A model generated the notes under the pieces. That model worked only from the letters and a program-made list of their open reading frames with translations, was not told where the DNA came from and ran no database searches. Below, piece by piece: positions 5,250 through 62,794 of a stretch of DNA of 64,000 nucleotides (its first letter is position 1; each line of letters opens with the position of its first letter). Source of the stretch: a virus. The stretch spans positions 1-64,000 of the IMG/VR virus record IMGVR_UViG_3300025168_000034. One strand, written 5' to 3'. Both the position numbers and the translations under genes were made by a program.

Positions 5250-5668
5250 TATTTTAATCCGATTAGTTCTTGTTCTAACTCTAACTCCATGTCTTCTGCC
5301 ATCTCTTTCAATCGATAGCTAGCTGCATTTTCAAGCTCGTTAATAACTTCTGCATCAACATCCTTCATTGGATATCCCATTCCGAATCCATAACAAGTAA
5401 CATACTGTTGAATGCTTCTCAACTCTTCAGTTTGGACATCTGTGTATTCTCTTTCTAAGAAAGGCTCAATCTCGTAGCCATGCTCTTCAGCTTCGATCTC
5501 ACAAGTATTCTCATCATATTCGAGCTTGGCTTGTTCCATTGCCTCATTCCACTTCTTGAGTATCTGAGTCTTAATATCTTCACCAACCTTCTCATTGTGA
5601 GCATACATCTCTTTGCTCCATGGTTTTGTGATCTCGATTCCGTACTTAACTTCTTTTGCTTTTTTCAT
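5249..5668 (-). CDS. hypothetical acidic protein
   Basis: ORF downstream of the promoter-like site at 5715-5754. Confidence 0.65.
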   Translation of the reverse strand: MKKAKEVKYGIEITKPWSKEMYAHNEKVGEDIKTQILKKWNEAMEQAKLEYDENTCEIEAEEHGYEIEPFLEREYTDVQTEELRSIQQYVTCYGFGMGYPMKDVDAEVINELENAASYRLKEMAEDMELELEQELIGLK

Positions 5669-5714
5669 AACTTTGATTTTACTAGTGAAGATCTTAGAGC
5701 TCCCTGCCCCTGCA

Positions 5715-5754
5715 TCTCTATACTAAAGACCACCCTTTTTTTCCAGACTAGCAA
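5715..5754 (-). promoter_or_regulatory. class A promoter-like site (degenerate palindrome)
   Basis: TTG-N20-GGTCTTTA; imperfect palindrome TCTTTA-GTA-TAGAGA; AT-rich upstream tract. Confidence 0.55.
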
Positions 5755-5901
5755 CAGTTTAGTAAAAAAAATAAAAAAAATTACATCACATTCTTTTGGA
5801 ATCTAGCTCTCTTCGGCTTTCTATTCTTTTGTGGTCTTCTTTCATCTTTGGTCTTAATACCCATCGATCTTCTCCAATCCTGGAGGCATTGTAATCTTGC
5901 T

Positions 5902-6387
5902 TTAGCGCTCATTTTGCTCATTATTTATTTGTTTTTGTTTTGTAAGTCGTTTGTATTTGTATAGCATCAATCCGTGAAATAATACTAAACACGCTATTGC
6001 TAAGATCTCAGCGAATAACATATCATAAAACACAAGTATCGTGCAAGCAAGATAAGGTTTTAAGATCCACTTAAAGTGGTTGGTTGTTGTTAATGGCACA
6101 ACACACGCTAGGAAGAAACATACAGCCATCCAGTTGTGAATTGCTAAATAATCTTCAACAGAAAAGCCTATTAGCAACACTAAGAATGCTGCAGGGATTT
6201 TCCATTTCTCCGAATCAAATAGATAATAAGCTGTTATGATATTTGATAGTATAAATAGTGGTTGGAGTGGTGTGTTCCAGTATTCTGAATACGAATGTTC
6301 CCAACCATAAGTAGCTACACACACGAGTGGTGCAACTAGCGCTAATAACAAAGCTGATGTTCTAACAGATAGTTCTCCTTTACTCAT
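5902..6387 (-). CDS. multi-pass membrane protein
   Basis: about 5-6 hydrophobic helices; SYSEYW and IHN motifs. Confidence 0.7.
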   Translation of the reverse strand: MSKGELSVRTSALLLALVAPLVCVATYGWEHSYSEYWNTPLQPLFILSNIITAYYLFDSEKWKIPAAFLVLLIGFSVEDYLAIHNWMAVCFFLACVVPLTTTNHFKWILKPYLACTILVFYDMLFAEILAIACLVLFHGLMLYKYKRLTKQKQINNEQNER

Positions 6388-6389
6388 AG

Positions 6390-6617
6390 TTAAAATGGAA
6401 GTTTAGTCTGTGCTTCATCTTCCTTCTTAACATCCAATAGGTGTTGATACGTATCTGTTGATATTTGTAATTCTACTTGTCTGTGAGCAAAGTATCCTGA
6501 TCTGTCTGGATCTGCTTCTCCCAATGTCCATACGACATCCTCAAAATCTCCTTTCATAAATGCATCAAAGTGACTATCTCTGACTTTGATTGTGATTGAT
6601 TTTATTTCTGGCTTCAT
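6390..6617 (-). CDS. hypothetical protein
   Basis: ORF preceded by a TTG-N20-TATAGTTA site (6632-6662); ends in LPF. Confidence 0.6.
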   Translation of the reverse strand: MKPEIKSITIKVRDSHFDAFMKGDFEDVVWTLGEADPDRSGYFAHRQVELQISTDTYQHLLDVKKEDEAQTKLPF

Positions 6618-6645
6618 AACTTAAATTTATATAACTATACTCTTT

Positions 6646-6906
6646 CTAATCCAGAAAGTCAACAAGCTCATCGTACTTTCCTACCTCAATATATATTGGT
6701 GTTTGATCACCTACATGCGCTCCCCACACATTGTATTCGAGATACTCAATAGCATCTTCGTGAGTCATATCCATATCATAAACTGAAATGGTTATCATCT
6801 TTTGTCTGTCGTATACAAACCTCTGCGAATAAGGCTCTAAGCCAATAATCGCTGCATCGTATCCATCTGGTTTCATCATATCATTTCGTTTTGTACTTTG
6901 TTCCAA
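6646..6906 (-). CDS. conserved hypothetical phage protein (probable start near 6879)
   Basis: DGYDAAIIG...VYD...EDAIEYLEYN..GAHVG..TP pattern common in aquatic phages (from recall). Confidence 0.7.
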   Translation of the reverse strand: MEQSTKRNDMMKPDGYDAAIIGLEPYSQRFVYDRQKMITISVYDMDMTHEDAIEYLEYNVWGAHVGDQTPIYIEVGKYDELVDFLD

Positions 6907-7409
6907 TAACCTTTAGTGGAAGCATAGGTCATTCCTCTAGGTCCTCCATTCCAACATCTAGCTATATCTTCAAGATTATTAAGCTTATAAAATCTAGCAA
7001 AAATTTTGAGCATCTGTATTGATTCTGAACGTGACCATCTATCTTGAAGTTCATAAGTTTTTTTGATTCCTAACCTCTTACAAATACGATTAACTTCTTT
7101 AACCATAATTGGTCGGATCTGTAAACAACCTACAGCATCTTCTGATGCACAATAAGCTGAATCATTATCTCTGCTCTCAACCTGAATCATTGCATAAATC
7201 AAACTATCTATAGATGGTGGTGCAGTAACAATTGTAATTTGATCTACAACTTTTACAGTATCAGGTAATACTTCATCTGTCTTGATTGGATTGGAGTGAT
7301 CATGATTGCAATCTTCATGTTGATTGGGACTACTTTCATGCATTCGACCATACAATGCGATTGCAAAGTAGGAGGTGATTACGATAGGTACTATTACTTT
7401 CATTTTCAT
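6876..7409 (-). CDS. lytic transglycosylase/lysozyme-like protein with N-terminal TM anchor
   Basis: MIQVES catalytic Glu, AVGCLQI and WNGGP motifs of the SLT/lysozyme fold; start set at MKMKVIV. Confidence 0.8.
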   Translation of the reverse strand: MKMKVIVPIVITSYFAIALYGRMHESSPNQHEDCNHDHSNPIKTDEVLPDTVKVVDQITIVTAPPSIDSLIYAMIQVESRDNDSAYCASEDAVGCLQIRPIMVKEVNRICKRLGIKKTYELQDRWSRSESIQMLKIFARFYKLNNLEDIARCWNGGPRGMTYASTKGYWNKVQNEMI

Positions 7410-7420
7410 GTTTTTGTATT

Positions 7421-7771
7421 TTATTTCCAAAAAACCTGCACTGCCATTAAAGCACACGCAAGCACTAAACTAACTAATGTCTTTGTATTTATACCTTCGT
7501 CATTAAACACATACACAAGTGCTGCAAATATTATTACTCCTGTACCAAAGCTGAAAATCCTGCTAGGCCATAGAGCACCATCAAATGCTAAGTATAGGTA
7601 CTTAGTAGCATATAGGTAAAAAAACGAAATAGGAATTGATGGTATGATAATCATAAACCATTCATGCTTCTTGCACCATTCCCAAAAGAACTGACTATTG
7701 AGCTGAAACCATGCTGAAGCTTGTGCTGCTGCCATAAACAGCAATCCAATTATTAGTGATCTAATATCCAT
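7421..7771 (-). CDS. four-TM SMR/DMT-like membrane protein
   Basis: four hydrophobic helices; xxEGINTKTLVSLVL C-terminal pattern typical of the DMT superfamily. Confidence 0.6.
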   Translation of the reverse strand: MDIRSLIIGLLFMAAAQASAWFQLNSQFFWEWCKKHEWFMIIIPSIPISFFYLYATKYLYLAFDGALWPSRIFSFGTGVIIFAALVYVFNDEGINTKTLVSLVLACALMAVQVFWK

Positions 7772-8208
7772 TAACAACCTTCTAAATAAGTTTCTAATAC
7801 ATCTCTCATTTCAAAGAACAGCTCTTTGGCATCTCTGTCTGGATTCTCAAACCATATCTGACAATATTTGCCAATCTCATCCAGTGCCATTGTAGAAGAG
7901 GTTTGCCAAAATAATTCTGCATCTTGACCGCTTTGCAGCATGGTGTCTAAGAACATAAACACCTTTGTATATGGTGAAATAAACTCATCTGCGATTCCAT
8001 CTTTACTATAAGGACCAAATTCATCTAGCTGCTTTACGTTGTCTTCTGGTTCATATATCATCTGCCAAACGTAATCAGCATAGAGTTGATCATTCACAAA
8101 GTGAATTGAATTCAAATCCTGCTGTCCTTTGAAAGCTTTTACGTTTTTGAGAGCTTCAGGAGAAACCCTCTCTGGATACTCCAACCATTCAGTTATATTT
8201 ATTGCCAT
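7771..8208 (-). CDS. hypothetical protein
   Basis: stop/start-coupled ORF. Confidence 0.65.
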   Translation of the reverse strand: MAINITEWLEYPERVSPEALKNVKAFKGQQDLNSIHFVNDQLYADYVWQMIYEPEDNVKQLDEFGPYSKDGIADEFISPYTKVFMFLDTMLQSGQDAELFWQTSSTMALDEIGKYCQIWFENPDRDAKELFFEMRDVLETYLEGC

Positions 8209-8558
8209 TACTTTTTGTATTTATCAAATTCAAATGTTGGATTACTTTGCTCTAATTCAATCTGACGATCTCTTAGTGTGGTTCCTAAATCCTTGTCATT
8301 AGGTGTTGCTTTAATTGTACGACTAATGGTGATAACTCCTGATCTCGTAGGTAACTTAACACCAAATGCAGACTCAACTTCCTTGTCAGATAAAACATCT
8401 GCACTCACCACACTTCCTGGTTCTAATTGATTGTAGGGTGATTCTTTTATTACATAGAAGAGACGAACATCTCCATTTGTAAATCCGGTAGGAATAAATT
8501 TTAATACTTCATCTGTCTGAAGTAGATTGTAGATTGTTGCTGTGCTTAACTTGTCCAT
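8208..8558 (-). CDS. hypothetical protein
   Basis: ORF after promoter-like site; PNDKDLG motif. Confidence 0.65.
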   Translation of the reverse strand: MDKLSTATIYNLLQTDEVLKFIPTGFTNGDVRLFYVIKESPYNQLEPGSVVSADVLSDKEVESAFGVKLPTRSGVITISRTIKATPNDKDLGTTLRDRQIELEQSNPTFEFDKYKK

Positions 8559-8576
8559 ATGTTTAATTTATTTGAT

Positions 8577-8607
8577 TAAATATACGGACTTTATATCGAT
8601 TTTGCAA
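8577..8607 (-). promoter_or_regulatory. host-RNAP-type promoter (class B, TTG-N20-TATATTTA)
   Basis: TTGCAAAATCGATATAAAGTCCG-TATATTTA; resembles Bacteroidota -33/-7 (TTG...TAnnTTTG) and also fits TTGnnn-N17-TATAnT. Confidence 0.7.
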
Positions 8608-8608
8608 C

Positions 8609-9139
8609 TTATGCCTTAACTGTTTTTATTATAATGTCAGGGTATTTGTCTTGAAGCTTGGCGACTGCATCTACATTCTTCTGTGAATCATCAATAAAGA
8701 ATATCTTGTTGTATCCTTTCTTGATTTCATTTTCAATGTATTGAGCTTTTTTTTGCGGGTTAGCATCGCCTACTGGTATTATGTATGGATCAATGTTGTG
8801 CTGTGTCTTGAAGAAGTGTTTCATTGGATATCCTTGTGCACGTGCTGTGAGTATGGTTACTTTGTTTTGTGCATTAGCCATAGCTTTCTTCAACATCTTC
8901 ATGTTACGATCAATAGTCTGTGGATTCTTTAGCATACTGTTAAAGTCTTTGAAATCAAACTTATCTCCAGGATCCTCTTCATAGGTAGCATATTCAGCTG
9001 GATCTAGTTTTAGTTTGGTGCCATCTGATTTTGTCACATATATGAATGCTTCGGATGTAGCTAATGTGTCATCAAAGTCAAATATGACAAGTCGTTTGCC
9101 AAGCTGCTTTTCATTTAGTATTTCTGCTAGTTTGATCAT
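8609..9139 (-). CDS. HAD-superfamily phosphatase with MIKLAEILNE leader
   Basis: motif I FDFDDT, motif II ILTAR, motif III K, motif IV FIDDS. Confidence 0.85.
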   Translation of the reverse strand: MIKLAEILNEKQLGKRLVIFDFDDTLATSEAFIYVTKSDGTKLKLDPAEYATYEEDPGDKFDFKDFNSMLKNPQTIDRNMKMLKKAMANAQNKVTILTARAQGYPMKHFFKTQHNIDPYIIPVGDANPQKKAQYIENEIKKGYNKIFFIDDSQKNVDAVAKLQDKYPDIIIKTVKA

Positions 9140-46528: not shown

Positions 46529-46873
46529 TTACCTTTTACCACCATAGTATTCTGTTCCATGGCCTTCTGTTATTAGTTGTTTATTGATTGAATGGTCGTC
46601 AACACGAATGTCTCCTAAGCATCTTCCAAACTTACCGACTCCATGTGATACTAATATAAATTCGTTATCAATATCTTCAAGGAGTTCGATTAATCTAGCC
46701 TTTGCAGCCAATCCTCTTTTCTTTTCTTCTAAGTCTCTGGTACGAGATTCTGGAGCGTTGATACCATGCATTCTTATTCTGACCTTTTTCCAAGTATCAA
46801 ATCCTAAGTCTATCATGGCATCAACTGTGTCACCATCTACAACTCGTAATGTTTTTGCGTTGTATTCGTACAT
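46529..46873 (-). CDS. thermonuclease (SNase-like)
   Basis: RVVDGDT, RMHGINAPE, GKFGRCLG. Confidence 0.9.
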   Translation of the reverse strand: MYEYNAKTLRVVDGDTVDAMIDLGFDTWKKVRIRMHGINAPESRTRDLEEKKRGLAAKARLIELLEDIDNEFILVSHGVGKFGRCLGDIRVDDHSINKQLITEGHGTEYYGGKR

Positions 46874-48483
46874 TACATCATGTATTGTGGTTTCTTCTCC
46901 TCTTCTTCAGCTTCTGGATTGATACCTACGACACACTCAGTTGTAAGTAATGTTCCTGCTGCTGAAGCAGCTAATTCTAATGCAGTCAATGTTACTTTGG
47001 CTGGATCAATAATACCAGCATCGAACATGTTTACAAACTCATCATTCCTAGCATCATAGCCAGCATCATCGTTAGATGGAATCATCTGACGAATAGCTTC
47101 AGGACTCTTTCCTGCATTTCTAACGATAGCGTTGAATGGTTCAAAGCATGCTTTGCTGACTATGCTATGTCCCATACTTTGATCTGGATGATCAGTTTCA
47201 CATACAAAGTTTTCAGCAGCTTGGGATAATCCAATTCCACCTCCAGCAATGATGCCATCTTCGACTGCAGCTCTTGTAGCACATAAAGCATCATCAACTC
47301 TGTCTGCCTTTTCTTGAAGTTCAATCTCTGTAGCAGCTCCTACATTAATAACAGCTACACCTCCAATAAGCTTGCTCATTCTGCTTTGGTGCATTTGTTT
47401 ATCGAAATCACTTTCTGCACTCTCGTATTGGGATGTGATCTGCTCTACTCTCTCTTCGATAGCTTTCTCGTCACCTCCACCATCTACAATAACAGTCTCG
47501 TTCTGATTAACAGTTACAGTTTTAGCTGTTCCTAACATGTCAGCAGTTAGCTTCTCTAGCTTCATACCCTTCTGTGTTGATATCACTTGACCTCCAGTAA
47601 GAGTAGCGATGTCTTCTAGGTATTGTAATTTTCTGTCTCCAAATCCTGGAGCCTTAACTGCACAAACTTGAAGAATTCCTCTAGCTTTGTTTACGATCAT
47701 GGCTGCCAATGCTTCACCATCTACATCATCTGCGATGATTAATAGTGGTTTGTTTTGTTTGCTACAATTCTCTAGCAAAGCTAAAACCTCTTTTACACTA
47801 CTGATCTTTTTATCACACAATAAGATTAGTGGATCTTTCAATGTACACATCATTGTGTCATTATTTGTAACAAAGTATGGTGAAACATAACCTTTTTCAA
47901 ACTGCATTCCTTCAACTATCTCTAAAGTAGTTTCAGCAGTCTTGCTCTCTTGTACTTGAATGACACCATCCTTACCAACATTATCCATAGCTTCTGCTAT
48001 AATAGTTCCAATTGGTTCATCATTATTAGCTGAGATAGTTGCCACTTGTTTGATCATATCATTCGTAACTACTTCTTTAGCATTTTTACGAATATTCTTA
48101 ATGATCTCCTTTGCAGCTGCTTCCATTCCTCTCTTCAATTCTACTGGATTCATTCCAACCATTACGGCTTTCAATCCTTCATTGTACATGTAGGATGCTA
48201 AGATTGTTGCAGTAGTTGTTCCATCTCCAGCTCTCTTTGCAGCTCTCATTGAAACCTCTTTAATTACTTCTGCTCCAAGGTTTTCGAGTGAGTCTTCTAG
48301 TTTGATTTCCTTTGCTACTGATACTCCATCTTTTGTAATTGAAGGTGGTGCACCTTCTTTCTCGATTATAACATTTCGTCCACATGGACCTAGTGTTGTT
48401 TCAACAGCTTTGGATAACTTGTTGACGCCAGTACGGATTCTCTCTCTTCCGTCTTCTCCGAATTCTAAAACTTTACTTTTCAT
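46873..48483 (-). CDS. groEL: chaperonin GroEL
   Basis: TLGPCGRNV, ITKDGVSVAK, AGDGTTTAT, KAPGFGDR, GIIDPAKV. Confidence 0.97.
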   Translation of the reverse strand: MKSKVLEFGEDGRERIRTGVNKLSKAVETTLGPCGRNVIIEKEGAPPSITKDGVSVAKEIKLEDSLENLGAEVIKEVSMRAAKRAGDGTTTATILASYMYNEGLKAVMVGMNPVELKRGMEAAAKEIIKNIRKNAKEVVTNDMIKQVATISANNDEPIGTIIAEAMDNVGKDGVIQVQESKTAETTLEIVEGMQFEKGYVSPYFVTNNDTMMCTLKDPLILLCDKKISSVKEVLALLENCSKQNKPLLIIADDVDGEALAAMIVNKARGILQVCAVKAPGFGDRKLQYLEDIATLTGGQVISTQKGMKLEKLTADMLGTAKTVTVNQNETVIVDGGGDEKAIEERVEQITSQYESAESDFDKQMHQSRMSKLIGGVAVINVGAATEIELQEKADRVDDALCATRAAVEDGIIAGGGIGLSQAAENFVCETDHPDQSMGHSIVSKACFEPFNAIVRNAGKSPEAIRQMIPSNDDAGYDARNDEFVNMFDAGIIDPAKVTLTALELAASAAGTLLTTECVVGINPEAEEEEKKPQYMM

Positions 48484-48839: not shown

Positions 48840-49310
48840 CTATAAAATCTCAATTTTATGAGATACTTCTACTTTAGGCTCCTTCTTTGGTAATGTTAAA
48901 TCTAACACTCCATTATGAAAAGTTGCTTTTGCTTTAGAGCAATCTAGTACCTCTTCATTCACATTCCAGCTTCGTCTGAATGAGCTTCTTTTTAGCTCTC
49001 GAAGTACTACGACACCAGTGTCTTCTAAGTCTTGTGCTTTTGCTCCACTAACTGTTAAGACACCATCTTTATATTCGATGTCAACATCTTCTTTAGTGAG
49101 CCCAGCAACTTCAGCAGTTATTACTACTCTGTCGTCGTAATCGGTAATGTTTACTTTTGGATAAGATCCCTTTGCAAATAAGTCTACTCCAAACTCTTGG
49201 GAAAATTGTGGGAAATTTGTTTGGATGATTTTGTCGAACATGCTGTCAAAAGCGTCGACGAAGTTTGATCTGTGGTTGTGGAATACAACCGGAGTTAATC
49301 TAGTTTTCAT
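48840..49310 (-). CDS. hsp20: Hsp20/alpha-crystallin small heat-shock protein
   Basis: YPKVNI, AEVAG, LTVSG, SFRRS, ATFHNGVLDLTLPK. Confidence 0.92.
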   Translation of the reverse strand: MKTRLTPVVFHNHRSNFVDAFDSMFDKIIQTNFPQFSQEFGVDLFAKGSYPKVNITDYDDRVVITAEVAGLTKEDVDIEYKDGVLTVSGAKAQDLEDTGVVVLRELKRSSFRRSWNVNEEVLDCSKAKATFHNGVLDLTLPKKEPKVEVSHKIEIL

Positions 49311-53818: not shown

Positions 53819-54628
53819 TTATTTTTGGTAATCTGTAACGTAATCAACAATGTTTTCAACTCTTACTCGATCATAAGTGCAAGTGTGAGTCATACCTCTG
53901 AAGTCATTAGATGCTACTTCTATTGTGGCACTCTTACCGGAAGCAGATTTCTTTGTGATCTTGATGTGTGTAGGAGCCCAGATAGTTTTCTTGTAACCAT
54001 ATTCAAAAGTGTGAGCACCTTCTTTGATATCAACTCCAGTAGTTGTTAGTGTTTTGATCAAATTCTTTTGAGCTTTTTCTTCCTCTTCTTCTTTCAGTAC
54101 TCGAATGTGCATCTCTAACTCATGAATCTCTTCTTGAAGAATGTTATAAGTATTTTCGAAAAACATGAATGTATCAACCATTTTAGAAACCATCTCTTCT
54201 TTTGTGTCCTCTATACATTGAGCAACAAGACCGAAGAATGCAAGCTGTTTAAGATTGTCTCCGTTAGTAATCATATCTCCATTACCATAGCGACTGTGAA
54301 TATTAAACTCAACTCCTAGCTCAAACTTACCTTCTTTTTTAGCTCTCCACTCAAGTAGGTTTTTAAATTTAACTTGATTCCAGTTGTTATTGTTGAAGGT
54401 AATTTCAAAAGGAATAAAAGGAGTCTCCGCCTTAGTATGGTAGGTTGTGTAACCTAACTCAGGTCTCACTGTAATATCATTGTCACCCATATTAAAGTAG
54501 ACACCTTGTGGTTTGAAGAATTTCTCAATCATAGTTTCTTTAGCTACTCTCATAGCCTCCATATAAACTTTTGACTGCTTCTCTCTTAACTCGACGATTT
54601 GATTGTTAATTTTTTCGATTTTTTTCAT
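53819..54628 (-). CDS. hypothetical protein (early-type)
   Basis: directly downstream of a class A promoter-like site. Confidence 0.7.
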   Translation of the reverse strand: MKKIEKINNQIVELREKQSKVYMEAMRVAKETMIEKFFKPQGVYFNMGDNDITVRPELGYTTYHTKAETPFIPFEITFNNNNWNQVKFKNLLEWRAKKEGKFELGVEFNIHSRYGNGDMITNGDNLKQLAFFGLVAQCIEDTKEEMVSKMVDTFMFFENTYNILQEEIHELEMHIRVLKEEEEEKAQKNLIKTLTTTGVDIKEGAHTFEYGYKKTIWAPTHIKITKKSASGKSATIEVASNDFRGMTHTCTYDRVRVENIVDYVTDYQK

Positions 54629-55230: not shown

Positions 55231-57201
55231 TTATTTTGTAGTATATGTAATAACATAAGTTGATTTTCCAGATGTAACAGTTAGTGTATTGTTGGTAAAC
55301 TGTGCTGTGGTTGATAGAGTTTCTAGACCATTAGTTAATCTAAATGGTCCATTTGGAGATGTTTCTGCATCAGTTGCAGTAAGTGTAATGGTTGTTTTTG
55401 AAGCGTATTGTAAAGTTCTTGTTCCCAACTGAACCTTGTTAGTCATTGTTACAGTTTCTCCACCATTTTCCGTTAGTTGATATGTACCACTACTAGCTAT
55501 GTGATGCGTATCAAAACTATTAATTTGAAATCTTCGAGCCGCATCTTTACTAGATATATTAGTCCATTGAGCTTCATTAGTAAAATCAGCAATATGTGCT
55601 GTTAATGTTTTCGAACCTCCCTGAGGAGTTATTGAATATTCATATCTACTTGTTGATGAATTATATGCTATTTCATAATTAGTACTTCCAAGCTTGCTAC
55701 TCAGTGTAGCAGATGTAGATGTTTGATTTGCTGCTATTGAAGCTGTAAATGGTTGTATAGGTGCAGTTGCCCATTGTTTTCCATCATACTCTTGTAACGT
55801 ATAACTACTTGCAGTTGGTAAATATTTTGCTTCGTCTTTTAATTCAGATGATAATACTTGGAATCCAGGATTAGCCAATGTTATTTCATACACTTTACCG
55901 GCTGATGCCGTAACTTGTGTTGCTATGATAGTTGGTGCTGCTTTTGGAAAAGTAGCTGCTACTGTTGGATTAAATGGTCCAGACTCATTGTTTAAGAATT
56001 GTCCTCTTCTTATTTCAGTTCCTACTACAAACATTTGACCTGGGGCTTCTTTAAATTCAAGCGTAACAACATCTTCACCTTTTTCTTGCATTGTGTAAGT
56101 CATTCCACCTAATTGAAAAAATTCACGAGAAGGTTTTTTAGATGTATTAGCATCTGTTTCATTTGCTTTGCCATCTTCTATTTGAGCTAAACTACTTTGT
56201 TGGGTTTCTATTAATTCAAATACAGGAACAAATCCAGCTGATGCACCTTGTGCTAATCTATCTGCTTGTACAGCATAATCTTCTTTTACGCCTCTGTTAA
56301 CTGCTTGGATTTGGGTCGTTAAGTAGTTAGCATTATATAATTCAGATCTTGATAACTCACCTAATTGTTCACGTACACTGTTTAGTGATGATTTGATAGT
56401 TCGTCTAGCCGAGGTATCAAGACTACCAGTTGTTGTCCAAGCATTACCATCAGGAAGTTTAACTTTATCGAAAAGAGTTTCAGGATCAATTTCGGTTTTA
56501 GCTCCTCTTGTACTTTGTATTTGTCGAGCTATAGATTTATATCCTTCTACCTTTGCATTATTAGTTGTAAAGTTTGTAGAGTCTGCTCCTTTTACTGCAC
56601 TACCTACCATCTCGGTAACACTCTCTAAATAGGTTGCTATTGATTGAGCTGCTACTGCTGCTTGACTGTCAGCTAGTATGGATTCTGCTACGTAGTCTTT
56701 GTTGAGCATTACATCTTTATCTGCTACATCTAACTCTACTCCAAACAATGTGCTTGAGCTAACAAATAAAAGATCAATAGCTGTGTCAACAGTTAGGTTT
56801 GTATCTTCTTCTTTGAGGTGAAATGCTAATGTGGTTAATGGAGAAACTGTTGAGTATTCTGCAAAGCCTTTTAATTCACCAGTGAATGCTACTCCGGTAA
56901 TTGCATCGGTTCCTCCAATCACTGTTATTTCTTCAGTTGGAATTCCAGGTAAGGTGAATCGACCAGCGTTGTCTGTTACAGCATTTCCGGTTCCTGGAGA
57001 AGATACGGTTGCTCCTGATAAGGGTCCATCAGATGCATTACCACTAAATCCAACTCCTCCTGCAGCTCCGCCATACATGGCTTGGATTGCTTGAAGGTCA
57101 AGTAATTGTTTAGAGTTTTCTAAAAGGAATCTAGCCTTTTGTTCTCTAAGAGTTAGTTTTGTATTTTCTGGATTGCTTATAAATTGCTGCCATGTAATCA
57201 T
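55231..57201 (-). CDS. large Thr/Ser-rich surface or virion protein
   Basis: DGPLSGATV...TDNAGRF...GGTDAITG...VSPLTTL resembles an N-terminal domain of bacterial surface proteins; beta-rich C-terminus; class C motif upstream. Confidence 0.7.
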   Translation of the reverse strand: MITWQQFISNPENTKLTLREQKARFLLENSKQLLDLQAIQAMYGGAAGGVGFSGNASDGPLSGATVSSPGTGNAVTDNAGRFTLPGIPTEEITVIGGTDAITGVAFTGELKGFAEYSTVSPLTTLAFHLKEEDTNLTVDTAIDLLFVSSSTLFGVELDVADKDVMLNKDYVAESILADSQAAVAAQSIATYLESVTEMVGSAVKGADSTNFTTNNAKVEGYKSIARQIQSTRGAKTEIDPETLFDKVKLPDGNAWTTTGSLDTSARRTIKSSLNSVREQLGELSRSELYNANYLTTQIQAVNRGVKEDYAVQADRLAQGASAGFVPVFELIETQQSSLAQIEDGKANETDANTSKKPSREFFQLGGMTYTMQEKGEDVVTLEFKEAPGQMFVVGTEIRRGQFLNNESGPFNPTVAATFPKAAPTIIATQVTASAGKVYEITLANPGFQVLSSELKDEAKYLPTASSYTLQEYDGKQWATAPIQPFTASIAANQTSTSATLSSKLGSTNYEIAYNSSTSRYEYSITPQGGSKTLTAHIADFTNEAQWTNISSKDAARRFQINSFDTHHIASSGTYQLTENGGETVTMTNKVQLGTRTLQYASKTTITLTATDAETSPNGPFRLTNGLETLSTTAQFTNNTLTVTSGKSTYVITYTTK

Positions 57202-57321: not shown

Positions 57322-57354
57322 TAGAGCCTTATATTAGGAAAACATAAGGCTCTA
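57322..57354 (-). terminator. stem-loop terminator after the deazaguanine module
   Basis: TAGAGCCTTATGTT-TTCCT-AATATAAGGCTCTA (14-bp stem with one G-U) followed by TTTAT. Confidence 0.7.
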
Positions 57355-57361
57355 GTTTGTG

Positions 57362-58174
57362 TTAAAGATCTGCTCGCAGCAGTTCTGGGATTCTGCATTG
57401 TAATCCTAAGAAAGCTATATTCTTTTCGATTAAGCTAAAGTCAATATCAGCAGGATTACTCAGATCAAACTCCTCCAAAAAGTTGTGAGGTGTTGGAGTT
57501 CTTGTCTCGTGATCCATACTAAAGTCTTGACCATGTACAGCTGCTAATACTGGATACACTGAATCTGTACTTCTCATCATCGCATGATCATAGTAAGCAA
57601 ACTCAGTTGGATCTCCTTGGCCTAGACAATGAATAGGCTTCTTGAGTAAATCTTTCTTTTTGAGATAATCGTAACACGCATGACGTGCCTCTTTGATTCC
57701 TTGATCATCTTCAAAATCATCAAGCCATGCATTAGGTACTGCTATTTTTGATAAGCCAATTACCTTAACCCAATTCTTATCTATACCCCACTGATAAGCT
57801 TCAATCCAATCCTCTTTAGTTTGTCCTTGAGGACAGAAGAAGATATCGATATTGTCAGATAATCCTTCTGCATCCATTCTTGCTTTGAAGTTTGTTGCAT
57901 TAGCAATTGTAGCTTGTTTGTCAAACAACACATCAGGTGCAATCACTTCATTTGGCATAAGCACTTTGCAGATACCAATCAACACATCTTCAGTAACTAA
58001 TGCTCTTTCAGCTGCGCTATTGTCAAGTGTTATAAATTTACCTTGCTCTTTTTGTTCGAGAATAAACTTTCTGTATTCTGGAAACTGTACCCATAAGTGT
58101 GCAAGAGCAAATATTCTATCTCCGAGCTTCATTGGCTCGAGGTTGCTTACAGGTGATATTACGTAATAATCCAT
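57362..58174 (-). CDS. dpdA: TGT-fold 7-deazaguanine transglycosylase-like protein (DpdA-like, short)
   Basis: LDNSA, APDV, PQG, IGLS, IHCLG and RSTDS motifs map onto the TGT barrel; next to folE and que genes. Confidence 0.65.
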   Translation of the reverse strand: MDYYVISPVSNLEPMKLGDRIFALAHLWVQFPEYRKFILEQKEQGKFITLDNSAAERALVTEDVLIGICKVLMPNEVIAPDVLFDKQATIANATNFKARMDAEGLSDNIDIFFCPQGQTKEDWIEAYQWGIDKNWVKVIGLSKIAVPNAWLDDFEDDQGIKEARHACYDYLKKKDLLKKPIHCLGQGDPTEFAYYDHAMMRSTDSVYPVLAAVHGQDFSMDHETRTPTPHNFLEEFDLSNPADIDFSLIEKNIAFLGLQCRIPELLRADL

Positions 58175-58175
58175 A

Positions 58176-58817
58176 TTATGTTCTACTTTGATCTATTAAT
58201 TGAAAAAATTCTTGTCTTGTTCCTATCTCATTTGTCCAGAAGTATCCAGACATTTGTGATGTCTTCATTACTGAGTCTTGTTTGATACCTCTACACTTCA
58301 CACAGTTGTGTTGTGATTCAACTACCACAGCTACACCTCTGTTTCCTACACATAACTTATCAACGTGATCGTGAATTTGCTTTGTTAAGCTTTCTTGTAT
58401 GTTTGGTCTACGAGAATAAAAATCTACAATACGATTAAGCTTACTCAAACCAACTACTAGATCCTCCTTCTCTTTACCTGGTATGTAAGCTACATGAGCT
58501 ACTCCTGAGAAAGTTAAGTTATGGTGTGCACACATACTCATTACTGGAATACGTGTTTGGCATATTAATCCGGTGTAGCCTTCGTCGTTAGGGAATGCAG
58601 TTACTTCAGGTGCTGGATTGATGGATCCTGCAATAAGATCATTAACCCATGCTTTCGCTACACGGTGAGGTGTACGATCGCTATGAGGATCAGCTTTCCA
58701 ATCAAAACCTAACGCTTCTAAAAATCCACCATAATACTCAGCAGCCTTTTTTATCATCTGCTCCTTCTCTTCGTTTGTACGAGGAAGATTCCCGTTCGCT
58801 TTTTTAATTAATTTCAT
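58176..58817 (-). CDS. folE: GTP cyclohydrolase I
   Basis: TPHRVAK, SMCAHH, VGLSKLNR, IQESLT, HNCVKCRG. Confidence 0.97.
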   Translation of the reverse strand: MKLIKKANGNLPRTNEEKEQMIKKAAEYYGGFLEALGFDWKADPHSDRTPHRVAKAWVNDLIAGSINPAPEVTAFPNDEGYTGLICQTRIPVMSMCAHHNLTFSGVAHVAYIPGKEKEDLVVGLSKLNRIVDFYSRRPNIQESLTKQIHDHVDKLCVGNRGVAVVVESQHNCVKCRGIKQDSVMKTSQMSGYFWTNEIGTRQEFFQLIDQSRT

Positions 58818-58820
58818 ATA

Positions 58821-59297
58821 TTAATTGTTGTTTATAATTTCTAATCGTTCTTCAAATATACTAAAAATCTTTTGACATTCCAACTCTATTGGTTTATTAT
58901 CTGCAACCTCAAAAGATTCAGTATCTTTGATATCGTCACGACGTTCATAACGCACTTTTCGTATGTGTTCGGATGTGTTTAACCATATTAGATGAGAGTC
59001 GGGATACCACTCAAGAATTTTATCTACGATTGTAGATTGTCTTATCCCATCTACAATAATAGGTCTTCTCTTAATGATACCTTTCTCCACACAAGTTGTT
59101 ATAGCATCTAACACTCCAACAACCTCTTCCGCAATACGCTCATCTAAATGTAGTGAGTTTTGTAACTTTGTTCGATCCTCACTTTTTATCAAATCCTTAA
59201 CAATGTTAGATACCGATATTCTGTAAGATGTTGATGCTTGAAACGAACTCTTCCCACTACATATACGTCCAAATAATAATATAACTTCTGCTTTCAT
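58821..59297 (-). CDS. P-loop nucleotide/nucleoside monophosphate kinase-like protein
   Basis: GRICSGKS Walker A, IIVDGIR, RxxRYxxR lid; start re-assigned to MKAEV (ATGA overlap). Confidence 0.75.
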   Translation of the reverse strand: MKAEVILLFGRICSGKSSFQASTSYRISVSNIVKDLIKSEDRTKLQNSLHLDERIAEEVVGVLDAITTCVEKGIIKRRPIIVDGIRQSTIVDKILEWYPDSHLIWLNTSEHIRKVRYERRDDIKDTESFEVADNKPIELECQKIFSIFEERLEIINNN

Positions 59298-59635
59298 ATC
59301 TCTACAATTCCAAAAAATTCTCCATCCTCTGACACAGTGCATCGACAAAGACCAAAATAGTTTAACAAATCCTCCGCTATCATCTCACAGCTCATTCCTC
59401 CAAAGTTGCAACATCCATATGCTCCATCGTACCAAGTCTTAGCAATATATTTTTTAAGCTTATGTTTAAAATCTATAAACTCAATGTCTCTATCACCATG
59501 TGACACTTCTGCTCTACAACTTATCTGGAATGTGTGTCTGTGTAAATGTTTTAAATACTCAACATTTGGTAGTGGACAATCTTTCCACTGATGCAATCCT
59601 TCTACATCAACTCTTACCTCTATATATTTTTTCAT
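59294..59635 (-). CDS. dpdL: QueD-paralog T-fold protein (DpdL-like)
   Basis: GLH.W, LKHLHRHTF (LxxxHRHxF), DRDIEF, SCEMIA, VSEDGE. Confidence 0.65.
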   Translation of the reverse strand: MKKYIEVRVDVEGLHQWKDCPLPNVEYLKHLHRHTFQISCRAEVSHGDRDIEFIDFKHKLKKYIAKTWYDGAYGCCNFGGMSCEMIAEDLLNYFGLCRCTVSEDGEFFGIVEI

Positions 59636-59675
59636 AATTCTAATATACGGCTTTTATTGCAAAGATACAACTTTA

Positions 59676-59879
59676 TTAGTCTTCAATTAATTCTGGTTCT
59701 TCTTCGCTCTCTAAACACTTATCTCTTGCTAGATCCCAATCGAAGTCAAACTCCCCCTCGTAATATGCTTCTAAAAAGCTTTCTTTATCTTTCTTGTAGT
59801 GAGCTAACTGTTCTTCAGTCAACTCCACCTCTTCCCATCTGTAGTCCGTATATGTGACTAGCTTTCGTAACTTTGCCAT
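59676..59879 (-). CDS. small acidic hypothetical protein
   Basis: probable start MAKLRK just after the upstream gene stop. Confidence 0.55.
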   Translation of the reverse strand: MAKLRKLVTYTDYRWEEVELTEEQLAHYKKDKESFLEAYYEGEFDFDWDLARDKCLESEEEPELIED

Positions 59880-59880
59880 A

Positions 59881-60363
59881 CTACTTTTTGTCTTTGTCTT
59901 TTTGCCATTGACCATCGTACAACTCTGCTTCTGCATTCTCCATCATAATGATCTGAGCTACTCTAGCACCTTTTTCTAAAACAATAGTTTCAGTAGCTAT
60001 AAGCATACCACCCATCTCATCTACCTCAAATCCTGGATCGTAAACTCCTGATGTGATAACACCTCCTGATCTTAGAACAGAGGACCTATGCCTAATAAAA
60101 GCTGTGTGTTTGTCATCCAACTTACATCCTTGTTCAAAGGTGAGTGAATAGGTACCTGGTTCTAGTTGATATAGAAACTTACCATCATCATTAATGAATG
60201 GTGTAACTTCATCGTAATCAAATACAGTGGTTTTATCTTTCATAACCATACCACCATTTACTTTATTTATTGACTTTAAGGTTAAGTCATAACCAACTTG
60301 CGCTTTCTTTCCTTTGTCTTTTGTATCAAGCAAGGAAGCGACTCCATCTGCATTTAGTAACAT
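59881..60363 (-). CDS. trimeric dUTPase/dCTP-deaminase family protein
   Basis: GYDL, RSS, GVYDPGF, GARVAQ, YDGQWQ. Confidence 0.85.
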   Translation of the reverse strand: MLLNADGVASLLDTKDKGKKAQVGYDLTLKSINKVNGGMVMKDKTTVFDYDEVTPFINDDGKFLYQLEPGTYSLTFEQGCKLDDKHTAFIRHRSSVLRSGGVITSGVYDPGFEVDEMGGMLIATETIVLEKGARVAQIIMMENAEAELYDGQWQKDKDKK

Positions 60364-60705
60364 ATTTGTATCTTATTTGTTTTGTGTATTAATACTTCTT
60401 TTTAAAACTGCAGCAATTAATAACATTGCTCCTCCTATTACCAACGCATGCATAAGAGTTGGTGATCCTTCATACTGACAACACTGCTCTCCGCATGCTC
60501 CCATAGTGTGTTTAATTAAATCTGTGTTCATATTATTTGGTTTTATTTGTATTAATATACGGTTTATTATTCTATTTTCCTAATTCTTTTATCTTTTCTT
60601 TAAGCTCATCAATCATTGCTTGAACCTCATCAGGCTCCATTGTAATAGCACAGCATGTGCCAACGTGTTCTGATATCTCTTCTAGTAACTCTAAAGCTTC
60701 TTCCA

Positions 60706-61563
60706 TCACACTCCTCGTTCTGTATCGAATGCTATGATGTGATCTCTACCAGTCATATTGTATCCCTCTCTTTCGCACATTCTGAATACTTTGGGATACA
60801 TTTCGATTAGTGTTACTCTCGTATCTCCGGCTGGCATCATATATGTCTTGTCTTTTGGAATATTCATCTCAACTCTGAAAGCTTCGATCTCCTCTAAGTT
60901 TTTATCTGTACCGTCCCATACTGGTTTGAAGTGATAGTCTGTGTGATAGTCTAAAGTCTTACGCATTGCGTCGTAATTCATTCTCAACTTGTTGTGTTGT
61001 TTTATCATACGCTCATCCGTTTCTTTACCAGATGGCGTCTTAGCGCCCAAAACGGGAACACTATTACTAAACTTAGGGCTAAGACTAATAAGCCCAATAG
61101 GATGATCAGTTGGTAAAAAGTGACTACCTTCAGTTTCAATAGTGATAAGAATACCTCTTTCATTTGCAAAGTGTGTTAATTCGTTTACTAGAGCTGGATG
61201 CATTGTTGGTGATCCTCCAGTTAACATCATTTCTTTTACGTGAGGATTGTCGTCATAAATTTTAATAATGTCGTTGAAGTTGAATGTACCTTTCTCTGGA
61301 TGAATACTTGTGTACCAAGAATCACACCATCCACCCTCACCAAAGTAACATCTGTGAGTACATCCAGTTGTTCTTACTGCAATAGTAGGTCTTCCGAATC
61401 TACTACCTTCAGACTGAACACATCTGTAAACTTCCACTATAGGTAGTACTTTATCGTAATTCTCAATACGTTTTAGTTGCTTTTCTTTTGTTGCTTGATA
61501 AGGTTTGTTCCTATCAAAATCGTAGTAATGCTTTGAGTGTTTTCTTGTGTCTTGCATGCTCAT
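60706..61563 (-). CDS. queE: 7-carboxy-7-deazaguanine synthase (radical SAM)
   Basis: VQSEG, RTTGCTHRC...WCDS, LTGGSP, IETEG, SLSPK. Confidence 0.92.
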   Translation of the reverse strand: MSMQDTRKHSKHYYDFDRNKPYQATKEKQLKRIENYDKVLPIVEVYRCVQSEGSRFGRPTIAVRTTGCTHRCYFGEGGWCDSWYTSIHPEKGTFNFNDIIKIYDDNPHVKEMMLTGGSPTMHPALVNELTHFANERGILITIETEGSHFLPTDHPIGLISLSPKFSNSVPVLGAKTPSGKETDERMIKQHNKLRMNYDAMRKTLDYHTDYHFKPVWDGTDKNLEEIEAFRVEMNIPKDKTYMMPAGDTRVTLIEMYPKVFRMCEREGYNMTGRDHIIAFDTERGV

Positions 61564-61566
61564 AAA

Positions 61567-61812
61567 TTAAAATGGTAAGTCATCAACCTTTGGTTCTGGT
61601 CTCTTTGGTGTATCTGGCTTTGGTGCAGGAGGGTTAAAATAGCTGTCTAAGAATTGTTTTGGATACATTAGTATCTTTCCTTCGTATGTAGGATTCTGTA
61701 TTTCTTTGCTTTCAATGCGTACACCTTGCTTAAACGCTTCTTCTGCAACTTTCTTACCTAGCTCTGCTCCTGCAGCTCTGTTTAAGTAATCGTATAATGA
61801 TAACATCTCCAT
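61567..61812 (-). CDS. hypothetical protein with DDLPF tail
   Basis: SLYDYL...YEGKILMYP; acidic-LPF C-terminus as in SSB tails. Confidence 0.65.
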   Translation of the reverse strand: MEMLSLYDYLNRAAGAELGKKVAEEAFKQGVRIESKEIQNPTYEGKILMYPKQFLDSYFNPPAPKPDTPKRPEPKVDDLPF

Positions 61813-61878
61813 AACTAATCTTTTATGTATTCGTATACAAAATCTATATCACCAAACGTGGTTGTGTATGTCCAATAA

Positions 61879-62346
61879 CTATCCTTCATAGATTGCTGTA
61901 TTTTTCTTGTTCTCAAAAAATTCCACTCTTGCGATACTCACTCTGCCTTCTGTCTCTTCTTGTACAAACGCGTTTAGCTTTTTGTATATAAACTCAGCAA
62001 ATCTCTCAGCGCCTACTGGACCATCCATTTCTCTTAATTGGATGATACCCTCATCATCTGCTTCTTGAAAATGAGTTAAGTATGGATCATCTTTTGCAAT
62101 TACAACTGTATGATCAAACATATAATCCATCCACTCTTTAGGAGACATTCCATCAATCTTAGTATTGGATCTTTTCATTCCTCCAAAGTCCCATACCCAA
62201 TTACGATGATCAAGATCACCCTCGAAGGTTACTTTAAACTCTATTGCATATCCATGTAAGAATCTGCAGTGTGTTGTTGTTGCTTGGTATTGACGAAATA
62301 CTGTACTGAATCCGTCAAAGATTTTTGTTGATTGAAATTTAGGCAT
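61879..62346 (-). CDS. queD: 6-carboxy-5,6,7,8-tetrahydropterin synthase
   Basis: HCRFLHGY, WVWDFG, FDH, GAERFA, ENKKN. Confidence 0.92.
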   Translation of the reverse strand: MPKFQSTKIFDGFSTVFRQYQATTTHCRFLHGYAIEFKVTFEGDLDHRNWVWDFGGMKRSNTKIDGMSPKEWMDYMFDHTVVIAKDDPYLTHFQEADDEGIIQLREMDGPVGAERFAEFIYKKLNAFVQEETEGRVSIARVEFFENKKNTAIYEG

Positions 62347-62794
62347 ATTGTTCTTTTGTTTGTTTACTTATACTACTATACAAAGAATAAAACGATTTTG
62401 CACCTTTTGTGTCCTGATCAAACGCTTCGGATAAACACTTATCCCAAACATCTATCTCAAAGTAATCTATTAATGCTAACTTGAAATCGAGCAAAATGTT
62501 TCCTTCTTCCCAGTTATAATCCTCCATCAGCTTATTATATCGCTTTCGATACCTACGCTCGATGTCTAGGTATCTGTGATCTTGTTCTGGGTTTGTGCCT
62601 TTGTAGGATTCTACAAATGCTTTGAGCTCTCTGTCTCTTGTTTTAAACTCTTCCTCAGCTTGACGTTTGTAGTCAGACTCATCAAAGTCACCATGCTCGA
62701 TCTGTTGTAAGATGAACGGTTTGAGTTTGTGAGCGTGTTTAGGATTTAGCTTCTTCTTTTTTGGATAACGTCTCCACCAATAAAATCTACTCAT
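62339..62794 (-). CDS. hypothetical protein
   Basis: overlapping ORF in the operon; RFYWWRR and IEHGDFD. Confidence 0.65.
   Translation of the reverse strand: MSRFYWWRRYPKKKKLNPKHAHKLKPFILQQIEHGDFDESDYKRQAEEEFKTRDRELKAFVESYKGTNPEQDHRYLDIERRYRKRYNKLMEDYNWEEGNILLDFKLALIDYFEIDVWDKCLSEAFDQDTKGAKSFYSLYSSISKQTKEQYA

Follow-up and report, generated by a model that had tools for sequence, protein, structure and literature searches.

In the Cellulophaga phage phiST, 100% of the guanine (G) in the DNA is replaced by 2'-deoxy-7-deazaguanine (dDG); two of its gene products have been named DpdL (CGPG_00067, the proposed decarboxylase of 7-carboxy-7-deazaguanine, CDG) and DpdA3 (CGPG_00065), while CGPG_00066 was described as having no homologues in other 7-deazaguanine phages and was given no assigned role (Hutinet et al. 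2023, PMC10516641). The same study reported that the DNA-acting DpdA subfamilies modify no more than about 30% of G whereas DpdA3 phages attain 100%, that the ADG nucleoside is detected in cells infected with phage CP220, and that expression of dpdL and dpdA3 in E. coli yielded no dDG; all such 7-deazaguanine modifications were proposed to be post-replicative (PMC10516641). A route via a modified dGTP had earlier been proposed for Campylobacter phages, before the discovery of DpdA3 (Hutinet et al. 2019, PMC6884629). Here, we describe a gene module in the opening 64 kb (in the following “the window”, the whole stretch of 64,000 nucleotides) of the 165,609-base IMG/VR record IMGVR_UViG_3300025168_000034, which is the 98% complete genome of an uncultured marine phage with 36.5% G+C. 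By its gene content, this module is a phiST-type dDG genome-replacement operon, i.e. a new member of a system that is already known. What is new is the mechanistic reading at the nucleotide level: on the basis of comparisons with related loci, we lean toward a pre-replicative route, in which the modified G would be made as a free nucleotide before the DNA is copied.

All five proteins that define the phiST dDG system, FolE, QueD, QueE, DpdL and DpdA3, are encoded in the window. Together with a small kinase-like protein (Kin) and further genes they form a unit on the minus strand, on which nearly all long open reading frames (ORFs) lie. Read from 62794 down to 57362, and followed by a hairpin and a DNA polymerase gene, the features are as listed below, with gene assignments from Pfam, NCBIfam and PHROG scans of the window proteins (TGT, tRNA-guanine transglycosylase; DCD, dCTP deaminase; dNTP, deoxynucleoside triphosphate):

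62339..62794, minus strand: 151-aa ORF, its end overlapping the QueD start by 8 nt
61879..62346, minus strand: QueD, 6-carboxytetrahydropterin synthase (PF01242, 4.7e-14; phrog_2389, 1e-39)
61567..61812, minus strand: 81-aa ORF between QueD and QueE, with homologues in 12 related loci
60706..61563, minus strand: QueE, radical-SAM 7-carboxy-7-deazaguanine synthase (phrog_2076, 4.8e-47; TIGR03365, 1.6e-13)
59881..60363, minus strand: predicted dNTP pyrophosphatase of the DCD/archaeal-dUTPase fold (PF22769, 4.4e-12; PF00692, 2.3e-6)
59294..59635, minus strand: DpdL, a QueD paralog with the motif LKHLHRHTF (phrog_17812, 2.3e-20)
58821..59297, minus strand: Kin, a small adenylate-kinase-like P-loop kinase (AAA_18, 3.8e-6; phrog_19196)
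58176..58817, minus strand: FolE, GTP cyclohydrolase I (PF01227, 4.6e-44; phrog_2197, 1.7e-56)
57362..58174, minus strand: DpdA3, a 270-aa TGT-fold protein (phrog_20335, 2.8e-48)
57322..57354, minus strand: terminator-like hairpin with a 14-bp stem and a T-rich tail, 8 nt past the DpdA3 stop codon
50553..52799, minus strand: family A DNA polymerase (PolA) with a 3'-5' exonuclease domain (PF00476, 9.2e-60; PF01612, 5e-14)

A 52-aa ORF between QueE and the DCD/dUTPase-fold gene completes the order. The scans thus bear out the seven genes that an initial annotation had named between 57362 and 62346, with a corrected start of the kinase at 59297, as well as the nearby PolA, which lies 4.6 kb downstream of DpdA3. 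Neither the 151-aa ORF, which has homologues in 13 related DpdA3 loci, nor the 81-aa ORF matched anything in the Pfam, NCBIfam or PHROG scans. The genes are closely packed: the DpdL stop codon and the Kin ATG overlap as ATGA, and the gap between FolE and DpdA3 is 1 nt. As the hairpin with its T-rich tail stands directly behind the TGT-like gene, the unit resembles an operon that ends there, and the hairpin likely marks its end.

In phiST, the order is QueD-QueE-FolE-MazG-like (CGPG_00068)-CGPG_00067-CGPG_00066-CGPG_00065. Both phages have the same protein set, lack QueC, keep the order DpdL-Kin-DpdA3 and encode a family A polymerase downstream, and the proteins are 65% (QueD), 61% (QueE), 50% (FolE), 38% (DpdA3), 36% (DpdL) and 28% (Kin) identical. 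The differences are that FolE is placed between Kin and DpdA3 in the window, that the dNTP pyrophosphatase is of the DCD/dUTPase fold and not MazG-like, and that the genome has a myovirus-like size of 166 kb, as compared to the 79 kb of phiST, and is known from its genes alone. A megablast search of the window against phage records gave no match. FolE, QueD and QueE have established family functions that together lead from GTP to the free base CDG. The absence of queC and queF, initially seen in the window, extends to the whole 98%-complete genome of 165,609 bases, across which neither QueC (PF06508) nor QueF (PF14489) was found, and without QueC the pathway halts at CDG. The next enzyme, DpdL, carries the motif LxxxHRHxF in place of the CxxxHGH of QueD, as had been noticed from the sequence, and the initial annotation had also correctly linked such a paralog to a Cellulophaga phage, which is phiST (PMC10516641). 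The window DpdL is 49% identical to the copy of Chryseobacterium phage MA9V-3. The DpdL proteins of MA9V-3 (L002:5644-6528) and of locus L012 (6998-8062) have long N-terminal extensions that by eye appear HNH-endonuclease-like.

The protein encoded at 57362-58174 is, judged by its sequence relatives and its structural model, a member of the DpdA3 subfamily, and thus a TGT-fold predicted guanine/7-deazaguanine exchange enzyme. Its tblastn matches are restricted to the Cellulophaga phages phiST, phi13:1 and phi19:2 (38%) and to MA9V-3 (44%), and it falls into the same tree clade as phiST CGPG_00065 (1e-39 at 38% identity). An AlphaFold2 (AF2) model with 80 diverse relatives as alignment reached a mean predicted local distance difference test score (pLDDT) of 95.6 and matches archaeosine TGT (ArcTGT, Z 17.4), the DNA preQ0 insertase DpdA (7ui4, Z 17.0), bacterial TGT (Z 16.1) as well as QTRT2 (Z 15.6), as compared to Z values of at most 14.7 for generic TIM barrels; Foldseek finds the Z. 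mobilis TGT at 1e-8. The relationship is visible by fold comparison only, as the DpdA3 profile, run as a hidden Markov model (HMM) against solved structures, retrieved no TGT, and the similarity between DpdA and DpdA3 likewise lies below detection in this kind of search. Invariant among the 80 sequences are D51, D81, R164, H182, G185 and D204, with a conservation of 90% or more at Q116 and G117. An hhalign alignment to the single E. coli TGT sequence, weak at 6.8% probability, places D81, Q116-G117, HLLG and D204 on the TGT motifs FDEC, QG, YLMG and FDC. With 270 aa versus the 375 aa of TGT, DpdA3 lacks the tRNA-binding C-terminal parts of that enzyme, and the CxCxxC zinc motif of E. coli TGT occurs in none of the 80 sequences. 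This latter absence says nothing about the substrate, because the motif is equally missing from the DpdA of phage 9g, an enzyme held to act on DNA. DpdA, DpdA1 and DpdA2 (e.g. of phage 9g) share with DpdA3 the TGT-type TIM barrel, genes that adjoin FolE, QueD and QueE and, as the weak alignment would suggest, conserved Asp at the base-binding and nucleophile positions of TGT. They differ in that they insert preQ0 or its derivatives into DNA, and only partially, up to about 30% (PMC10516641), and the DpdA1 and DpdA2 phages encode QueC, which is absent from the window genome.

Kin most likely starts at the ATG at 59297 and not at 59348, since relatives begin there and this ATG overlaps the DpdL stop codon, which results in a minimal protein of 158 aa. 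BLASTP recovers CGPG_00066 of phiST (7e-13) and the MA9V-3 protein XQU63046 (9e-18), whose gene lies directly upstream of DpdA3. In a profile search against solved structures, the top match is the AMP-bound, AdkA-like Sulfolobus protein 3lw7 (1.1e-9), followed by adenylate and UMP/CMP kinases, and the same kinases are the top Foldseek matches of the AF2 model (pLDDT 90.9; probability 1.00, TM scores of 0.57-0.66). In an alignment of 28 diverse sequences, G15, K16, R42, G84, R86, Q87 and R116 are invariant. They belong to the Gly-Lys of Walker A, to an Arg (Arg/Lys) after a VGDIVR-like segment, to a DGxRQ motif and to a later Arg, and the arginines of the VGDIVR segment and of the later position may be read as elements of the nucleoside monophosphate (NMP) site and the LID of adenylate kinases. 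Kin therefore looks like an NMP kinase. It shares the P-loop, the NMP-site Arg, the DGxR and the LID Arg with the AdkA-like NMP kinases (Sulfolobus SSO1041, 3lw7/3h0k), from which it is distant, at 13-22% identity. A polynucleotide kinase (4gp6) ranks third in Foldseek with a similar score; we consider such a function less likely, as all profile matches are of the adenylate-kinase type and the motifs of the NMP site are conserved. A kinase of the T4 type for deoxynucleoside monophosphates (dNMPs) was not found in the genome. In the loci examined, Kin occurs only adjoining or fused to DpdL and DpdA3. A search with the Kin alignment for longer homologues found none, which is weak evidence, as the DpdL-Kin fusions of about 300-320 aa lie at the edge of the length window. 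A complex prediction for DpdA3 and Kin, run without controls, gave a median score of 0.06 versus a mark of 0.32 and is used neither for nor against the proposed mechanism.

The strongest argument for a role of this kinase in the pathway comes from the relatives of DpdA3. The module is abundant: a search of 1.84 billion representatives (at the level of 50%) returned 1143 DpdA3 relatives, and a separate search 575 relatives with E <= 0.001, of which the closest 120 clusters show identities of 69-93%. While a locus search with the single DpdA3 protein found no relatives, a pattern scan of IMG/VR with a 12-sequence DpdA3 alignment gave 80 loci, and 85 loci were analysed by local iterative HMM searches. 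DpdL is present in 76 of these 85 loci and the Kin family stands beside DpdA3 in 77, nearly always in the order DpdL-Kin-(FolE)-DpdA3; this is the linkage of the clade to which phiST and the window belong. CGPG_00066, which the phiST study called unique, thus is a conserved adenylate-kinase-like kinase. In about 28 loci, which belong to two separate clades of the DpdA3 tree, DpdL (N-terminal) and Kin (C-terminal) are encoded by a single ORF, and the protein P0175 is a DpdA3 with a Kin-family kinase at its C-terminus. As the loci are phylogenetically clustered, it is not the count of 77 that constitutes the independent evidence but the number of clades and kinase families. In a second DpdA3 clade, the N-terminus is fused to another kinase type, whose P-loop reads IEGVDGVGKTS and which has a YDR motif; 25 of the best 120 clusters related to one such protein, P0241, are full-length kinase-DpdA3 fusions (408-454 aa, 34-43% identical to P0241), and several of these have precomputed matches to PF02223 (thymidylate kinase) or PF01712 (deoxynucleoside kinase). 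In Vibrio phage D479, a T4-type dNMP kinase (PF21448, 36.3 bits, above the cut-off) directly follows the DpdA3-like gene and is itself followed by a dUTPase-like gene. In CP220, whose DNA contains 100% dADG, DpdA3 (CPT_0056) lies between a fusion of an HD-phosphohydrolase with an AAA_33 kinase and an AAA_28 protein. An AAA_28 gene overlaps the DpdA3 start in two further loci, one with the order dUTPase-FolE2-AAA_28-DpdA3 (L085) and one with a dUTPase-like gene about 2 kb upstream (L084). In Flavobacterium phage immuto_2-6A (100% fdPreQ1), the second gene upstream of DpdA3 encodes a nucleoside triphosphate pyrophosphohydrolase and the third gene downstream an AAA_28 kinase that is annotated as thymidylate kinase, and in Bacillus phage BSTP12 a P-loop ORF overlaps the DpdA3-like gene. 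The tree of DpdA3 has four deep clades, each with its own kinase type, and the linked or fused kinases belong to five families (adenylate-kinase-like, thymidylate/deoxynucleoside-kinase-like, T4 dNMP kinase, AAA_28 and AAA_33). In all three phages for which a replacement of 100% was measured, a kinase and a dNTP hydrolase are both encoded no more than three genes away from DpdA3. The single negative control is phage 9g, which has DpdA1 and replaces up to 27%; a Walker A motif is absent from its DpdA gene and from the eight surrounding genes.

The second recurrent neighbour is the dNTP hydrolase. The 59881-60363 protein reaches 86.5 bits with NF002598, below the cut-off of 130, and its closest solved relative is the probable dUTPase 9w59 (5.4e-6). 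It has the motifs GYDL, RSS, DPGF and VAQ and a C-terminal YxGxWQ, and in a phmmer alignment to the dCTP deaminase 4xjc a Gly occupies the column of the Glu of the ITLE motif, which we take to be the catalytic residue of the deaminase. A function as dCTP deaminase was rejected for this reason, and the alignment suggests that the protein is of the pyrophosphatase type, with dUTP or, as hypothesised here, dGTP as candidate substrates. Homologues are present in 41 of the 85 related loci, and DCD-like genes occur in the DpdL-containing modules of MA9V-3, Rhizobium phage RHph_I1_18 and Vibrio phage D479. An enzyme of the MazG/PRA-PH type takes the place of the DCD-like protein in phiST, immuto_2-6A and the loci L050/51, L064/65 and L091, and CP220 has an HD-fold hydrolase in its module. 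In three further genomes with an isolated DpdL-Kin-DpdA3 triad, a MazG-like gene lies 0.7-1.5 kb from QueE. The recurrence of dNTP hydrolases of three unrelated folds (DCD-like, MazG-like and HD) in this neighbourhood suggests that the activity is important to the pathway. The closest isolate homologues of the window protein, at 38-39% identity, are found in phages of Bacteroides thetaiotaomicron. Bacteroides phage SJC03 (L005) has two paralogues (3395-3895 and 8001-8498) 4 kb apart, and as there is no DpdA3 in this locus, the dUTPase-like family is not restricted to deazaguanine phages.

How could these components act together in a pre-replicative route? DpdL would decarboxylate CDG, or a CDG nucleotide, to 7-deazaguanine, as has been proposed in the literature. 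DpdA3 would use TGT-type chemistry, with an Asp as nucleophile at C1', to swap guanine for the deaza base, and would do so not in finished DNA but on a free deoxyguanosine nucleotide, with dGMP as the most likely substrate. The resulting 7-deaza-dGMP would be phosphorylated by Kin, a host nucleoside diphosphate kinase would complete 7-deaza-dGTP, and the family A polymerase of the phage would incorporate it. In favor of this last step, 7-deaza-dGTP routinely takes the place of dGTP altogether when family A polymerases are used in the polymerase chain reaction. The weakest step is the conversion of dGTP to dGMP by the DCD/dUTPase-fold pyrophosphatase, or by the MazG- or HD-type enzymes of other phages. 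This reaction would at once supply DpdA3 and deplete the dGTP that competes, and would thus account for the complete replacement in related phages. As to the fusions of DpdL and Kin, we speculate that they fit best if DpdL acts on a nucleotide just before the kinase does. The initial annotation had already suggested an exchange at the nucleotide level that is followed by phosphorylation and incorporation by PolA; none of our results contradicts this idea, and it has now gained strong comparative support from the five kinase families in four DpdA3 clades, but it is unproven and stands against a published model that is post-replicative. As to its further suggestion of a removal of competing dGTP, the role that the dUTPase-fold gene would play in this is indistinguishable from that of an ordinary dUTPase.

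The proposed logic resembles that of the Z-genome pathway, by which cyanophage S-2L and its relatives introduce 2-aminoadenine with the help of MazZ, PurZ, DatZ, host kinases and DpoZ. In both cases, a pyrophosphatase would provide the dNMP, a base-changing enzyme would act on this dNMP and kinases would rebuild the triphosphate, while the competing canonical dNTP is removed and the phage polymerase incorporates the analogue, so that replacement becomes complete. The enzymes are unrelated, and in the 7-deazaguanine phages a TGT-fold enzyme would exchange the entire base rather than construct it on the nucleotide. Moreover, these phages would bring their own kinase, and a single pyrophosphatase could both feed the exchange and purge the pool.

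What alternatives exist for such a nucleotide-level exchange? According to the published view, DpdA3 is a DNA transglycosylase of such high efficiency that each G of the finished phage DNA is exchanged. The P-loop proteins would then be ATP-using accessory factors in a DpdB-like role, or ordinary nucleotide-metabolism neighbours of the replication genes, and the dUTPase-fold or MazG gene would serve ordinary pool sanitation. We regard this explanation as rather unlikely, but it is the most serious competitor, and much of what speaks for it weighs against an exchange on free nucleotides. Insertion after replication is argued by Hutinet et al. 2023, the sole experimental paper on the module (PMC10516641), and a base exchange by DpdA3 on nucleotides is neither shown nor proposed in the literature that we found. 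The DpdA3 model is as close to the DNA insertase DpdA (7ui4, Z 17.0) as it is to the tRNA enzymes, and the conserved Asp, Gln-Gly and HLLG-type positions align, if weakly, with the base-binding and catalytic motifs of TGT. All characterised enzymes of the TGT family act on polymers, and to our knowledge no member of the superfamily acts on a mononucleotide, the known substrates being tRNA and DNA; a protein substrate of Cap10 is presumed from a PDB title only. The features that we had hoped would discriminate, namely the missing CxCxxC and the acidity, are also found in the DpdA of phage 9g, which presumably acts on DNA. Zinc-motif absence and acidic charge (pI 4.75 and net charge -17 for the window DpdA3) were dropped as arguments against DNA binding; the median isoelectric point of the DpdA3 family is 6.05, with 29 of 80 members above 7, and that of the 9g DpdA is 5.64.

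With respect to the neighbours, bacterial DpdA requires the ATPase DpdB, which counts in favor of P-loop proteins as accessory factors in a post-replicative process. Nucleotide-metabolism genes often cluster near replication genes in large phages, and as a dNMP kinase and a dUTPase belong to the gene set of T4-like phages in any case, the adjacencies in D479 and those of the dUTPase-like genes could be incidental. Phages often carry dUTPase-type genes, and the 59881-60363 gene is the only dUTPase-fold gene of its genome and for that reason may encode an ordinary dUTPase. Three DpdA3 loci (L003, L063 and L091) show no kinase within the flanks examined. Nevertheless, insertion into finished DNA leaves unexplained why the partner is always of a small-molecule kinase fold, from five families across the DpdA3 clades and often fused, and why Kin retains the NMP-binding and LID arginines of nucleotide kinases. 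A Walker A motif is, moreover, absent from the DpdA cluster of phage 9g. A complete conversion would furthermore require tens of thousands of base-flipping events per genome copy, and dpdL and dpdA3 alone gave no DNA modification in E. coli (PMC10516641).

A mixture of both principles appears improbable to us. Most 7-deaza-dG would then still pass through the nucleotide pool, either with Kin acting after the base of a nucleoside or nucleotide has been exchanged or, in phages that carry a phosphoribosyltransferase, via this enzyme and a subsequent ribonucleotide reductase, and DpdA3 would also patch residual G in the DNA; alternatively, DpdA3 would act on deoxyguanosine, and the kinase would be a deoxynucleoside kinase. 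This would agree with the phosphoribosyltransferase genes inside the modules of L063 and immuto_2-6A, with the fused kinase domains that match both thymidylate-kinase and deoxynucleoside-kinase families, and with the ADG nucleoside reported from CP220-infected cells (PMC10516641). The module of the window phage, however, contains no phosphoribosyltransferase, nothing in the data separates nucleoside from nucleotide substrates, and the scheme is more complex than either pure model. A role outside DNA, in which the module boosts the supply of queuosine precursors for the host or modifies tRNA, is hardly credible, since FolE, QueD and QueE are indeed common to queuosine biosynthesis, but a genome without QueC and QueF cannot make preQ0 or preQ1, DpdA3 has lost the tRNA-binding C-terminal parts of TGT, and the orthologous phiST module gives DNA with 100% dDG (PMC10516641).

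Several observations in the surroundings of these modules deserve mention. In the window, TATCTTTG is found at 59660-59667 on the minus strand, 25 nt upstream of the DpdL ATG, and fits TAnnTTTG, the -7 promoter consensus of Bacteroidota. An internal promoter may thus lie upstream of DpdL, and the match suggests that an overlapping 86-aa ORF (59676-59936) is not a gene. Two minus-strand ORFs of 656 aa (55231-57201) and 269 aa (53819-54628) lie between DpdA3 and PolA and have no Pfam or PHROG match. Just downstream of PolA, also on the minus strand, are genes for an Hsp20 small heat-shock protein (48840-49310; phrog_432, 7.3e-19) and a GroEL-type chaperonin (46873-48483; phrog_5725, 5.6e-165).

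In locus L091 (7533-9480), a relative of the clade with kinase-fused DpdA3, genes for a DNA polymerase III alpha subunit, a 129-aa ORF, MazG and DpdA3 are followed by one for a transporter of the Vut_1/YhhQ family (3.9e-42), presumably the family of the preQ0/preQ1 importer. The phage may thus take up its deazaguanine base from outside. The phosphoribosyltransferase genes (PF00156) are located inside the modules at 8182-8613 of L063, which has no Kin, and at 2840-3235 of the immuto_2-6A locus L092 (immuto26A_60); as a speculation, their products might salvage the guanine set free in the exchange or convert the deaza base into a ribonucleotide. In the largest clade with fused DpdL-Kin (L066-L083, e.g. 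L066:3370-11202), the triad comes after genes for a UvrD-type helicase and a class II ribonucleotide reductase and before one for a DUF4494 protein, a kind of protein also encoded inside the immuto_2-6A module, and QueE is found tens of kilobases away in the same genomes. Selfish elements often target the genes of this pathway: the ribonucleotide reductase near the L066 module (5407-8721) harbours an intein that includes an HNH domain, the DpdA3 proteins P0126, P0127 and P0173 are fused to LAGLIDADG endonuclease domains, and an insertion resembling an intein is present in P0183.

It is rare for a canonical base to be replaced completely, and the mechanism is so far understood for pyrimidines and 2-aminoadenine only. 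The full proposal is that DpdA3 is the first TGT-fold enzyme to act on a free deoxyguanosine nucleotide and, with the help of a dedicated kinase and a pyrophosphatase that cleaves dGTP, turns the dGTP pool into one of 7-deaza-dGTP before replication, as a guanine counterpart of the Z-genome; we consider the chances of this being correct or incorrect to be about equal. If it is true, the TGT superfamily would gain a new class of substrates, and it would become clear why dpdL and dpdA3 alone did not suffice for dDG formation in E. coli. The compact set of DpdL, kinase, DpdA3 and pyrophosphatase would be usable for the enzymatic synthesis of 7-deaza-dGTP and its analogues. The published post-replicative model would be overturned for all complete 7-deazaguanine genomes, and a pathway of this kind would be widespread in marine, freshwater, gut and Campylobacter phages.

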